A DNA stretch of 38,006 nucleotides from a virus (IMGVR_UViG_2778261277_000017:1-38006); one strand, 5' to 3'. Shown: positions 12,501-15,771, numbered from the stretch's first letter. Numbers and translations: made by a program. Notes: generated from the sequence alone by a model not told the origin.

Positions 12501-13104
12501 ACCAGCGCGAAGACGATGTAAAAACGATGAATGTCGGGAATGGTTTCACCCTGCATTCGCTAATCAGTGGTGGTGCTCTCCAGAGTGTGGAACCAAGATA
12601 GCACTCGAACGACGAAGTAAAGAACGCGAAAAAGCGGAAAAAGCAGCAGAGAAGAAACGACGACGAGAGGAGCAGAAACAGAAAGATAAACTTAAGATTA
12701 GAAAACTCGCCTTAAAGCCCCGCAGTTACTGGATTAAACAAGCCCAACAAGCCGTAAACGCCTTCATCAGAGAAAGAGACCGCGACTTACCATGTATCTC
12801 ATGCGGAACGATCACGTCTGCTCAGTGGGATGCCGGACATTACCGGACAACTGCTGCGGCACCTCAACTCCGATTTGATGAACGCAATATTCACAAGCAA
12901 TGCGTGGTGTGCAACCAGCACAAAAGCGGAAATCTCGTTCCGTATCGCGTCGAACTGATTAGCCGCATCGGGCAGGAAGCAGTAGACGAAATCGAATCAA
13001 ACCATAACCGCCATCGCTGGACTATCGAAGAGTGCAAGGCGATCAAGGCGGAGTATCAACAGAAACTTAAAAAACTGCGAAACAGCAGAAGTGAGGCTGC
13101 ATGA
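12490..13104 (+). CDS. ninG: NinG (Rap) recombination endonuclease
   Basis: 204-aa ORF with Cys-rich N-terminus ([25 protein letters not shown]), the same length as recalled for lambda ninG. No ninF-like ORF precedes it. Confidence 0.9.
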
Positions 13105-13773
13105 ATATCTACGAAAGAATTGATGGCAGCAAATACCGAAATATTTGGGTAGTTGGCGATCTGCACGGATGCTACACGAACCTGATGAACAAACTGGATA
13201 CGATTGGATTCGACAACGAAAAAGACCTGCTTATCTCGGTGGGCGATTTGGTTGATCGTGGTGCAGAGAACGTTGAATGCCTGGAATTAATCACATTCCC
13301 CCTGGTTCAGAGCTGTACGTGGAAACCATGAGCAAATGATGATTGATGGCTTATCAGAGCGTGGAAACGTTAATCACTGGCTGCTTAATGGCGGTGGCTG
13401 GTTCTTTAATCTCGATTACGACAAAGAAATTCTGGCTAAAGCTCTTGCCCATAAAGCAGAAGAACTTCCGTTAATCATCGAACTGGTGAGCAAAGGTAAA
13501 AAATATGTCATCTGCCACGCCGATTATCCTTGTGACGAATACGAATTTGGAAAGCCAGTTGATCATCAGCAGGTAATCTGGAACCGCGAACGAATCAGCA
13601 ACTCACAAGACGGGATCGTTAAAGAAATTAAAGGCGCGGACACGTTTATCTTTGGTCATACGCCAGCAGTGAAACCACTCAAATTTGCCAACCAGATGTA
13701 TATCGATACTGGGGCAGTGTTCTGCGGAAATCTCACATTGATTCAGGTACAGGGAGAAGGCGCGTGGGCATAA
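13101..13773 (+). pseudogene. ninI: ninI-like serine/threonine protein phosphatase, interrupted by a frameshift
   Basis: Two adjacent ORFs (13101-13331 and 13336-13773) jointly carry the metallophosphatase motifs (GDLHGC, GDLVDRG, GNHE region). Reading frame breaks at a run of five C at 13307-13311. Confidence 0.75.
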
Positions 13774-14252
13774 GAGAACTAAACCTCACCAAAGAACAGC
13801 ACGAGTGGCTGAATGGCTGGCTTGAACTGTGGGGCGCATGGGTTTATTCAGGTCGTCTGGAAAAGCGCATGAGCAGCGTAATAGCTAAGTTCATGGAGAG
13901 CGTAGAGCCGGGAAGAGTTATGACAAGGCCAATGTGTAATGATGATGATGGAATGTTGATTTCTCAGGTCGTCGATTCCGTCATGTACATTGACAAGAAA
14001 GCCTTTGGCATCCTCCTCAGCTACTACGCCCACGGCTCTTCCAAGCACGCCATTGCATCTTACTATCATCGCGTCGCAAGACCTCGCAAGATGTTATGCC
14101 GGGGCGGCGGGCGCATTCAAAAACCATCGCTCGCAACCTGTCGACGGGAAGTTGACGAAATCCTCAATGCCTCGTTGTTTATGATTTACCCGGTTCTGGA
14201 TGGTGCGTTTAAAAACCGGAAACGTGTAGAGAAAATTAAACATGTAGCATAG
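13764..14252 (+). CDS. Putative late antiterminator Q (non-lambda type), assigned by position
   Basis: 162-aa ORF with GTG start and GGAGAAGG Shine-Dalgarno, between the nin genes and the late promoter/lysis cassette. Sequence is not lambda Q. Assignment is by synteny only. Confidence 0.5.
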
Positions 14253-14258
14253 AACGTG

Positions 14259-14340
14259 TTGACATCATTGAGCAAATGAGCAACACTATTCGCATAAGCT
14301 GCCGTTAGTGACTCTTAAGTTGCAACGGTGGCTTTTTTTA
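14259..14340 (+). promoter_or_regulatory. Candidate late promoter (pR'-like) and T-tract terminator downstream of the Q-like gene
   Basis: Perfect -35 TTGACA at 14259-14264 but no good -10 match; weak hairpin followed by TTTTTTTATTT at about 14330-14343. Confidence 0.35.
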
Positions 14341-14343
14341 TTT

Positions 14344-14418
14344 GGGTCAGTCGTATAAAGGTCATTACGGAAGGCTGTTAACCTTCTTATCGTGGTTCGA
14401 GTCCACGCTGTCCCGCCA
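14344..14418 (+). tRNA. tRNA gene, anticodon loop CUGUUAA (anticodon GUU, Asn-like)
   Basis: Hand fold: acceptor GGGTCAG/CTGTCCC (one mismatch), T-arm CGTGG-TTCGAGT-CCACG, anticodon arm GAAGG-CTGTTAA-CCTTC, encoded 3' CCA. Confidence 0.7.
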
Positions 14419-14423
14419 AATAT

Positions 14424-14499
14424 GCTGGTTTAGCTCCAATGGTAGAGCAGTCGCCTTGTAAGCGAATGGGTAGCGGTTCAAGTCCGTTAACCAGCACCA
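14424..14499 (+). tRNA. tRNA gene, anticodon loop CUUGUAA (anticodon UGU, Thr-like)
   Basis: Hand fold: 7-bp acceptor GCTGGTT/AACCAGC, D-arm TAGCTC..GAGCA, T-loop GGTTCAAGTCC, encoded CCA. Confidence 0.7.
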
Positions 14500-14618
14500 T
14501 AACTGAGCCGTAGCCACTGGCTATCATGAATTCATCAGTGATAGTTACGCTGCGGCCTTCTTTTTTTCCCCTTCCCAATATAAGAACTACGCAATCCGTT
14601 ACTGGCGGAGGCGTTGCT

Positions 14619-14834
14619 ATGAAATCAATGGACAAAATCTCAACTGGCATTGCCTACGGAACATCTGCTGGTAGTGCGGGATACTGGTTTTTGCAGTGGT
14701 TGGATCAGGTCAGTCCGTCACAGTGGGCTGCGATTGGAGTGCTTGGAAGCCTTGTGTTGGGTTTTCTCACTTATCTGACAAATCTGTATTTCAAAATCAG
14801 AGAAGACAGACGAAAGGCTGCGAGAGGTGAATAA
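14619..14834 (+). CDS. S: Pinholin, phage-21 S21 type, with dual-start motif
   Basis: 71-aa [71 protein letters not shown]; two transmembrane segments; Met1/Met4 dual start; GGAGG Shine-Dalgarno. Confidence 0.9.
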
Positions 14835-15331
14835 TGCCTCCATCATTACGAAAAGCCGTTGCTGCTGCTATTGGTGGCGGGGCTATTGCCATAGCATCTG
14901 TGTTAATCACTGGCCCAAGTGGTAACGATGGTCTGGAAGGTGTGAGACATAATCCTTACAAAGACATAGTTGGTGTATGGACTGTATGTTACGGGCATAC
15001 AGGAAAAGACATCATTCCCGGTAAAACGTATACCGAAGCAGAATGCAAAGCCCTCCTGAATAAAGACCTTGCCACGGTCGCCAGACAAATTAACCCGTAC
15101 ATCAAAGTCGATATACCGGAAACAACGCGCGGCGCTCTTTACTCGTTCGTCTACAACGTGGGTGCTGGCAATTTCAGAACATCGACGCTTCTTCGCAAAA
15201 TAAACCAGGGCGATATCAAAGGCGCATGTGACCAGCTACGTCGCTGGACATACGCTGGCGGTAAGCAATGGAAAGGGCTGATGACTCGCCGTGAGATTGA
15301 GCGTGAAGTCTGTTTGTGGGGGCAGCAATGA
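14834..15331 (+). CDS. R: SAR endolysin (lysozyme with N-terminal signal-anchor-release domain), phage-21 R21 type
   Basis: 165-aa [30 protein letters not shown]... with Gly/Ala-rich SAR segment, then a T4-lysozyme-like domain. Confidence 0.95.
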
Positions 15332-15771
15332 GCAGGTTAACCGCGATTATCTCCGCTCTGGTTATCTGCATCATCGTCTGCCTGTCATGGGCTGTTAATC
15401 ATTACCGTGATAACGCCATCGCCTACAAAGAGCAGCGCGATAAAGCCACGTACATCATCGCTGACATGCAGAAGCGTCAACGTGATGTAGCAGAACTCGA
15501 CGCCAGATACACAAAGGAGCTTGCTGATGCTAACGCGACTATCGAAAGTATTCGTGCTGATGTTTCTGCTGGTCGTAAGTGGCTGCGCGTCAAAGCAGTC
15601 TGTCCGGACATGCATAAAACCACCGCCGCCTCCGGCGTGGATGATGGCGCCAGCCCCAGACTTACTGACACCGCTCAACGGGATTATTTCGTTCTCAGAG
15701 AGCGCATCGAAACCATAACTAACCAATTGAATGGCCTGCAAGAGTATGTGAGATCACAGTGTTCATATTAG
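15328..15771 (+). CDS. Rz: Rz i-spanin
   Basis: ATGA overlap with R; N-terminal transmembrane segment ([20 protein letters not shown]) and coiled-coil periplasmic domain. Confidence 0.85.
15521..15718 (+). CDS. Rz1: Rz1 o-spanin lipoprotein, embedded in Rz in the +1 frame
   Basis: Lipobox LVVSGC and proline-rich body ([26 protein letters not shown]); lies wholly inside Rz. Confidence 0.8.

Follow-up and report, generated by a model that had tools for sequence, protein, structure and literature searches.

Organisation of the late region

The window analysed here is a stretch of 38,006 nucleotides of viral DNA (IMGVR_UViG_2778261277_000017), in which positions 14259 to 14618 lie between a Q-like gene and a holin gene. 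The original prediction of a late regulatory region carrying two tRNA genes at this place was confirmed by near-identity to Escherichia phage 21 (OL657228): positions 14200–14650 are 99.6% identical, the figure for the region overall is 99.6–99.75%, and between 14240 and 14640 there is one mismatch in 401 bases. This sole mismatch, at 14421 (T in the window, C in phage 21), falls inside the 5-nt spacer separating the tRNA-Asn and tRNA-Thr genes. The order, spacing and elements of the late region are all equal in the window and phage 21 (OL657228/AJ237660), and both read Q21 – PR′ – QBE – SDPE – tR′ – tRNA-Asn – tRNA-Thr – S21. Element coordinates were obtained by projecting onto the window the curated annotation of OL657228, which marks the PR′ −35, the Q21 binding element (QBE), the −10, the start site, the sigma-dependent pause element (SDPE), tR′, both tRNAs and the S21 pinholin. 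Beyond the late region, the rest of the window is nearest to Shigella phage SfI and coliphage phi458.

Upstream of the regulatory elements lies the Q21 late antiterminator gene (13764–14252, plus strand), an open reading frame that matches phage 21 Q and is labelled ‘antiterminator’ in OL657228. Its product is identical to phage 21 Q at 161 of 162 amino acids and matches PDB entries 6JNX and 6P18 over its full length (E 7e-109 and 2e-108, respectively). The gene starts with GTG in the window and with ATG in phage 21, and residue 147 is G in the window and S in phage 21. Upstream of Q, phage 21 has a NinH remnant whereas the window has a frameshifted NinI-like phosphatase gene. Within Q, on the minus strand, the CII-binding site (TTGC-N6-TTGC) of the antisense promoter paQ was mapped from the phage 21 annotation to 14076–14089, the reverse complement of which reads directly as TTGCGAGGTCTTGC. 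On the other side of the region, the phage 21 annotation places the S21 ribosome-binding site at 14607–14611, the S21 dual-start pinholin/antiholin gene at 14619–14834 (S71 from 14619, S68 from 14628) and an R21-type SAR endolysin gene at 14834–15331, all on the plus strand. The S21 product is identical to that of phage 21 at 72 of 72 amino acids and the endolysin at 157 of 165 (95%); the spanin is divergent from that of phage 21. The two genes originally named as flanks, a Q-like gene and a holin gene, could thus be assigned to Q21 and S21.

The PR′ promoter and the terminator tR′

The −35 hexamer of PR′, TTGACA, occupies 14259–14264 on the plus strand and corresponds to the minus_35_signal of pR′ in phage 21. 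A bare TTGACA is uninformative because 11 copies occur in the whole window against 24 expected; the copy at 14259 sits in a 29-bp −35/QBE/−10 block that is identical to PR′ of phage 21 and exact in 72 of 80 Q21-bearing loci (the best 80 in IMG/VR). The perfect TTGACA that had been pointed out 3′ of the Q gene is therefore present as part of a conserved promoter block. Between the −35 and the −10, the QBE (14267–14282, plus strand) forms a direct repeat of two exact 8-bp subsites, QBEu ATTGAGCA and QBEd AATGAGCA; the phage 21 annotation of this element cites Yin et al. 2019, and both Q21 and the QBE have been described by crystal and cryo-EM structures (bioRxiv 10.1101/651190). According to the same phage 21 annotation, the −10 hexamer AACACT lies at 14282–14287, with a 17-bp spacer to the −35, and the late transcription start site lies at 14294, all on the plus strand; this start coincides with that of the 50-nt ‘aRNA’ in AJ237660. 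Just 3′ of the start site, the heptamer TAAGCTG (14295–14301, plus strand) is the predicted SDPE, being identical to the annotated phage 21 element.

The intrinsic terminator tR′ spans 14296–14343 on the plus strand, with its hairpin at 14296–14334 and its T-run at 14333–14339. RNA folding gave a 17-bp hairpin with a dG of −20.2 kcal/mol (z = −6.1, with none of 200 shuffles as stable), and seven U follow directly after the stem. The element is identical to the phage 21 terminator and is annotated as a terminator in phage 21 (PMID 1704887) and in Sf6. A hairpin plus T-tract had been predicted here and is indeed present at 14296–14339, but its description as weak does not fit these values. A simple pattern-based terminator scan made no call in the region; this was due to the bulged stem and to a size beyond the format of the scan, and not to absence of the structure.

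The mechanism of this switch is established for phage 21 and may be transferred to the window by near-identity. RNA polymerase would start constitutively at PR′ (14294) and pause at the SDPE, and without Q it would terminate at tR′ to leave an RNA of approximately 45–50 nt; AJ237660 names the 50-nt PR′-to-tR′ product ‘aRNA’. Two Q21 protomers, bound to the direct repeat that lies between the −35 and −10, would load onto polymerase in its paused state and then accompany it as a nozzle at the RNA exit channel, where they would block terminator hairpins (the loading and nozzle mechanism and the role of the pause element are those of Yin et al., bioRxiv 10.1101/651190). Q-dependent read-through of the terminator has been demonstrated for phage 21 in the literature. 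In the window, antiterminated polymerase would be expected to cross tR′, both tRNA genes and a second hairpin with its U-run before reaching S21, the endolysin gene and the remaining late genes, and the tRNAs may then add to, or replace, the host pool of both tRNAs in late protein synthesis.

Two tRNA genes in the late leader

Two tRNA genes follow tR′ on the plus strand. The first, tRNA-Asn with anticodon GUU (14344–14418), has a G73 discriminator, and the second, tRNA-Thr with anticodon UGU (14424–14499), has G1-C72, C2-G71 and A73. Both were called independently by ARAGORN, for which they are the only two tRNA calls in 38 kb, and by Rfam RF00005, which scored tRNA-Asn at 55.3 bits (E 2e-9) and tRNA-Thr at 61.5 bits (E 4e-11) against a gathering score of 29. 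The original prediction had listed two tRNA-like genes, Asn-like and Thr-like by anticodon, and had named ARAGORN as a means of verifying them. The finder accepted both candidates with the same anticodons, Rfam agreed on GUU and UGU, the anticodon loops read CUGUUAA and CUUGUAA as reported, and a CCA is encoded at the end of each gene.

Several lines of evidence bear on whether the two genes encode working molecules. Asparaginyl-tRNA synthetase recognises the anticodon nucleotides G34, U35 and U36 and the discriminator G73, and threonyl-tRNA synthetase recognises G1-C72, C2-G71, G35 and U36; by direct reading, all of these identity elements are present in the tRNA-Asn and tRNA-Thr of the window, respectively. 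Both tRNAs retain the host anticodon loops, and each is approximately 58–70% identical to its host counterpart. In a comparison with the nearest diverged phage homologues, those of the Klebsiella lambdoid phage Mulock, N4 and P1, compensatory changes were found in 10 of 19 stem pairs of tRNA-Asn and 5 of 20 stem pairs of tRNA-Thr. Among the surveyed Q21 loci (see below), 45 share an identical Asn allele. The tRNA-Asn has the tertiary nucleotides U8, A14, GG and TTCGA, together with a conserved U4.U69 mismatch and a weak 3-bp D stem. The tRNA-Thr has a G27.A43 mismatch and C14 in place of A14, a nucleotide that is near-universal in tRNAs. Reduced function is conceivable in view of these oddities (C14 and G27.A43 in tRNA-Thr, U4.U69 and the weak D stem in tRNA-Asn). 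We nevertheless regard both as genuine tRNA genes on sequence grounds, given two finders, compensatory stems, intact identity elements and a conserved Asn allele.

Only 4 nt separate the T-run of tR′ from the start of tRNA-Asn, which leaves no room for a separate tRNA promoter, and a consensus promoter scan found none between 14294 and 14344; the scan and the 4-nt gap together led us to reject such a promoter as a probable source of the tRNAs. The start of tRNA-Asn directly follows the T-run of tR′ behind three kinds of Q/tR′ (Q21-type, Sf6-type and, in HK446 with its 6S/tR′, lambda-type); the most likely source of the tRNAs is therefore late RNA antiterminated by Q. Against co-transcription stands the case of Stx2a phages, in which the tRNAs of the equivalent slot are driven from a start site of their own, located between tR′ and stx.

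Taken together, the region is very probably the late-gene switch of a phage 21-type lambdoid phage or prophage, with two apparently functional elongator tRNA genes in the late-operon leader. Every sequence feature of a Q21-type late cassette that we checked was found in the window, as were the features of a tRNA in both genes. Since the tRNA pair has been published at the same site in phage 21 (PMC9119081) and in SfI, Sf6, ST64T and PS3 (PMC3636060), and is discussed for phage L (PMC8022706), the late switch and its tRNA pair are a correct rediscovery of an arrangement already known; the accompanying remark that tRNAs at this site are known from other lambdoid phages also agrees with these reports. 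The value of the finding is chiefly one of annotation, in that it anchors the window as a phage 21/SfI-type lambdoid element and allows PR′, the QBE, the pause element, tR′, both tRNAs and the lysis cassette to be placed exactly. To this the present analysis adds the strength of tR′, a second terminator-like hairpin and its conservation in lambda, a fixed but polymorphic tRNA slot, a codon bias that is not specific to late genes, and an overlap between the tRNA pair and the target set of the nuclease AriB.

A second hairpin downstream of tRNA-Thr

Seven bases past tRNA-Thr, and just upstream of S21, begins a second hairpin with a U-run (14507–14567, plus strand) that carries no annotation in the phage 21 record. 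The 50-nt hairpin itself (14507–14556) folds at −25.5 kcal/mol (z −4.9) and is followed by CUUCUUUUUUU, a tail with 9 U in 10 nt; a GC-rich stem running directly into a U-tract would be the form of an intrinsic terminator. The hairpin is 91–98% conserved in lambda (44945–45003), Sf6, HK446 and prophages, with or without tRNAs, which makes it an older element of the lambdoid late leader. The long T-run that follows it was found only with the S21 cassette, that is, in the phage 21-type arrangement, and the homologous hairpins of lambda and Sf6 have no U-run. The hairpin could serve as a second terminator or as an element of RNA processing or stability. Tandem late terminators in lambda were reportedly described by Luk and Szybalski in 1983, and RNase III sites in the lambda late leader are said to have been mapped by Daniels et al. 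in 1988. The lambda records contain no annotation that names this hairpin as one of the tandem late terminators or RNase III sites.

The position of the tRNA genes between two terminator-like structures, the second of which (−25.5 kcal/mol, 9 of 10 U) stands just before S21, raised the idea that they are also made in lysogens. Polymerase leaking through tR′ without Q would be stopped at the second hairpin, yielding a PR′-tRNA transcript of approximately 270 nt and thus a supply of tRNA without activation of the lysis genes. According to the literature, PR′ fires constitutively and lambdoid lysogens contain much of its short transcript, and the long U-run was added only in the phage 21-type arrangement, both of which would suit such a scheme. 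Leak-through is, however, expected to be small given the very stable tR′ hairpin and its perfect U7 tract. The second hairpin is also conserved in lambda and Sf6 with neither U-run nor tRNAs, and its main function is therefore probably a different one, such as RNA processing or stability. We therefore think expression in lysogens unlikely, although it would be compatible with each of the readings of tRNA function considered below. Three elements of the region, namely the Q-binding direct repeat, the pause element and the terminator-like hairpin past tRNA-Thr, had escaped the first reading of the sequence.

A fixed slot with variable tRNA content

To describe the distribution of the pair we surveyed the best 80 IMG/VR loci with a Q at least 98% identical to Q21. 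The slot held Asn and Thr tRNAs in 46 of the 80 loci (with an added Gly-UCC in one of them), Asn with a damaged Thr and Gly-UCC in six, Asn only in two, and Ile2(CAU), with or without Arg+Arg, in four; 20 loci had no tRNA but kept tR′ and the second hairpin, and the remaining two were uninformative. With about a quarter of close relatives lacking them, the tRNAs cannot be essential. A 24-nt 5′ stump of tRNA-Asn is retained in the four Ile2 loci and in a prophage of E. coli SMN152SH1, the second tRNA is decayed in ST64T, and some relatives have a phage/host chimeric tRNA-Thr with a host-type anticodon arm and captured glyT-like DNA. The tRNA module was at least 80% present in 344 of 5,426 complete E. 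coli genomes (roughly 6%), and the tRNA pair is 97–100% conserved across phages of Escherichia, Shigella and Salmonella with differing flanks. The cassette tRNAs are thus an optional mobile module whose slot is fixed, with tR′ on one side and a conserved hairpin on the other.

Comparison with other lambdoid systems places the same slot in a range of contexts. SfI, Sf6, Salmonella phage BTP1, other P22-like phages and HK446 share 14295–14561 (or 14334–14561) with the window at 97–100%, and the module always lies directly past the late terminator and before the lysis genes. These phages differ from the window in their Q and QBE, which are Sf6-type or lambda-type, in their holins and in lacking the long U-run after the second hairpin. 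Stx-converting and related lambdoid prophages carry ileZ-argN-argO where the window has its tRNA pair, between tR′ and the late genes, sometimes behind the very same Q21/PR′/tR′, and these prophages keep the 24-nt tRNA-Asn stump. In contrast to the window, the specificities of that cluster are those of classical rare codons (Ile2-CAU, Arg-UCG and Arg-UCU), its tRNAs lie approximately 200 nt farther from tR′, and it has its own mapped start site in the Stx2a phage.

The late leader of lambda (PR′ – 6S RNA – tR′ – spacer – hairpin – S) resembles that of the window in having a constitutive promoter, a Q-loading pause and a terminator, and its hairpin at 44945–45003 is homologous (91.5%) to 14501–14559 of the window. 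It differs in its unrelated Q, its 6S RNA of 194 nt and a spacer of approximately 165 nt without tRNAs. We considered whether this spacer is a decayed tRNA pair and rejected the idea, as it gave no Rfam tRNA match at E <= 10 and its local alignment to tRNA-Thr and tRNA-Asn was no better than that of shuffles (z <= 2.4).

The variability of the slot invites the view that the pair is a near-neutral mobile passenger of little benefit to the phage, spread through the use of the tRNA genes, the flanking T-run and the hairpin as recombination joints in lambdoid mosaics. It accords with a slot whose content ranges from Asn+Thr through Asn+Thr+Gly, Asn+decayed Thr+Gly and Ile2+Arg+Arg to nothing, with breakpoints that lie within tRNA genes (the 24-nt tRNA-Asn remnant and the chimeric tRNA-Thr with glyT-like DNA) and with the decay of the second tRNA in ST64T. 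The identity of the Asn gene in 45 loci, the 97–100% conservation of the pair despite differing flanks, the compensatory substitutions that keep the stems in more distant homologues and the intact identity elements nevertheless indicate purifying selection, and we judge a purely passenger role to be quite improbable.

Codon supply as a possible reason for the pair

Another explanation is that ACA, read by Thr-UGU, and AAU/AAC are used more often in the phage than in its host and that the pair is retained for this reason; extra copies made late would speed the translation of abundant structural proteins. Per 1000 codons, ACA occurs 12.0 times in late and 15.0 times in early genes, compared with 5.4 in a 50-kb K-12 sample (odds ratios of 2.2 for late and 2.8 for early genes, p < 1e-6), and AAU occurs 22.6 and 21.7 times, respectively, compared with 13.8; AAC shows no excess over the same sample. 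The original prediction had proposed comparing codon usage between the late genes and the host, and in this comparison ACA and AAU are enriched, AAC is not, and the enrichment is phage-wide.

Enrichment of ACA and AAU over the K-12 sample in both late and early genes speaks for codon supply, as do the same ACA excess in the SfI study (17.3 vs 7.1; PMC3636060), the use of AAC for 24 of the 25 asparagines encoded by the capsid gene of phage L (PMC8022706) and the single E. coli gene for the UGU anticodon, thrU. Late-gene-specific codon adaptation, on the other hand, was rejected as stated, because ACA and AAU are at least as enriched in early genes as in the late genes with which the tRNAs would be co-expressed. 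For tRNA-Asn the difficulty is greater: AAC is not in excess, the host has one Asn isoacceptor with several gene copies, and the SfI authors found no explanation for this tRNA (PMC3636060). Further points against are the 20 of 80 phages that have the same Q but no tRNAs, and the 58–70% identity of the tRNAs to those of the host, where a simple boost in supply could use host-like copies. Codon bias accounts only weakly for the Thr gene and does not account for the Asn gene, and codon supply is an explanation of the pair that we entertain only tentatively.

Possible counter-defence function

PARIS/AriB-type nucleases are often carried on P4/P2-type elements that compete with lambdoid phages. A further reading of the pair is that the two tRNAs are nuclease-resistant stand-ins for host tRNAs cut by nucleases of the PARIS/AriB (Toprim) kind. 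With resistant copies, late protein synthesis could run to completion, and the repeated occurrence of Asn with Thr would reflect the target range of the nuclease and not codon usage. The main targets of AriB are Lys-UUU (the prime target), Thr-UGU and Asn-GUU, which are cut between nucleotides 40 and 41 within U36-A-A-U39-C40|A41; cleavage is lost with U39→A and impaired with A41→C or U16→C, and T5 variants of all three tRNAs jointly neutralise PARIS and rescue infection, for which the T5 tRNA-Lys is needed (PMC12409363).

Exactly two of the three, Thr-UGU and Asn-GUU, are the specificities of the window pair. Its tRNA-Thr has G39, G41 and A16 (UAAGCG compared with UAAUCA in the host) and its tRNA-Asn has C39, U41 and A16 (UAACCU compared with UAAUCC in the host), so that both lack U39, are altered at position 41 and have A16. 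G39 is shared by all five coliphage Thr(UGU) genes examined (the window, P1, N4, Mulock and T5), and the T5 tRNA-Thr is one of the three T5 variants that jointly inhibit PARIS. Asn and Thr tRNAs also occur together in P1 (in tandem), N4 and Mulock, unrelated phages with few tRNAs, and a counter-defence role would cover the tRNA-Asn that codon bias leaves unexplained (PMC3636060).

Other observations weigh against this reading. The prime AriB target, tRNA-Lys(UUU), is absent from the window (ARAGORN) and from the 80 best Q21 loci, yet it is required for rescue by T5. The whole anticodon stem of both tRNAs has diverged from the host, at 8 of 10 positions in tRNA-Thr, so that differences at 39 and 41 would arise through divergence alone and are no specific sign of evasion. 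P1 tRNA-Asn keeps UAAUCA, some relatives carry the chimeric tRNA-Thr with a host-type, cleavable anticodon arm, and late expression may arrive too late against an abortive response. The AriB match was, moreover, found post hoc, by going through known nucleases. We regard resistance to nucleases of this kind as a rather unlikely purpose of the pair in the window, and it is slightly more doubtful still that the Asn(GUU)-Thr(UGU) pair of phage 21-type and P22-like late leaders and the P1 tandem together form a counter-defence cassette. If true, the idea would mean that counter-defence by tRNAs, known from large virulent phages such as T5, also operates in common prophages. The codon supply, counter-defence and passenger readings are not mutually exclusive.

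The closest point of comparison for a counter-defence role is phage T5, whose tRNA-Lys, tRNA-Thr and tRNA-Asn variants neutralise PARIS. The T5 tRNA-Thr has the same U39→G change as that of the window, and the UAAU motif is lost in both window tRNAs. The two phages differ in that the window has no tRNA-Lys, and in that the window phage is temperate with its tRNAs in the late operon, whereas those of T5 lie in an early tRNA region.

Recombination joints in and around the tRNA pair

Comparison with other phage and prophage loci (each given in its own coordinates) placed homology breaks within the tRNA genes themselves. Among the Q21-type prophages, those with Ile2(CAU)/Arg/Arg tRNAs (L004 2551-2574, and also L087 and L095-L097) retain the intrinsic terminator tR' and the first 24 nt of tRNA-Asn, at which point homology ends, and this break is a recombination joint within the tRNA gene. 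We also found a chimeric tRNA-Thr in some relatives (as at L071 1359-1512 and L034 2161-2314), the 5′ 25 nt of which are of the phage type and the 3′ 51 nt of which match E. coli K-12 thrU at every position. Since this thrU-identical segment is followed on its 3′ side by a glyT-like tRNA-Gly(UCC), relatives of this type appear to have captured DNA from a host tRNA operon. The chimeric tRNA-Thr of the L034 type has a damaged anticodon stem and was rejected by ARAGORN. One other Q21 locus (L076 1996-2779) has approximately 700 nt between the late promoter PR' and tRNA-Asn, compared with the usual spacing of 56 nt as measured from the end of the 29 bp PR' block (the -35/QBE/-10 stretch) to tRNA-Asn; the extra leader length may be an insertion.

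Downstream of the pinholin gene S21, the differences between the window endolysin and that of phage 21 (OL657228) were concentrated in a 25 bp patch at 14944-14968, and the Rz-like spanin gene (15328-15771) was strongly divergent from its phage 21 counterpart. Together, these two features indicate mosaic joints immediately 3′ of the conserved Q-to-S21 block.

The tRNA pair in other phages

The second tRNA of the pair in ST64T (L014 1581-1649) has a shortened anticodon loop and scored 42 bits against Rfam, yet it was not called by ARAGORN. The equivalent gene of phage L has been published as Leu(UAA); the ST64T gene resembles a tRNA-Thr copy that is decaying. Phage N4 (L012 2837-3086) encodes Asn, Ser, Thr and Pro tRNAs, and the Thr genes of N4 and P1 (L011 3925-4078) are 80-86% identical to the window tRNA-Thr, whereas the Asn genes of both phages belong to a different lineage from the window tRNA-Asn. 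In the window, tRNA-Thr has C14 (14437) in place of the A14 found in nearly all tRNAs, and tRNA-Asn contains a U4.U69 mismatch (14347/14411) that is also kept in its homologue from Klebsiella phage Mulock.

Directly 3′ of tRNA-Thr we noted a strong hairpin (-25.5 kcal/mol) followed by a U-run (14507-14567), an element that the phage 21 record leaves unannotated. The hairpin without its U-run recurs in lambda (44945-45003), Sf6, HK446 and prophages that lack tRNAs, with 91-98% conservation; the long U-run was found only together with the S21 lysis cassette.

The Q gene, its upstream neighbour and the early-left operon

The Q gene begins with GTG at 13764 in the window, as opposed to ATG in phage 21, and differs by a single amino-acid change at residue 147 (14202; glycine in the window, serine in phage 21). 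Conservation with phage 21 also covers the antisense promoter paQ within Q, along with its CII-binding site (TTGCGAGGTCTTGC; 14057-14089, minus strand). Upstream of Q, a single additional C in the C-run at 13294-13298 (C5, versus C4 in intact homologues of 672 nt with 99.3% identity) breaks the NinI-like Ser/Thr phosphatase gene (13101-13773) into two ORFs; either the gene is a pseudogene with a frameshift, or the homopolymer was misread during sequencing. In the early-left operon, an Rfam match to Lambda_thermo, the cIII thermoregulator (RF01804; 4711-4769, minus strand; 88.5 bits against a gathering score of 50), marks a lambda-type cIII leader.
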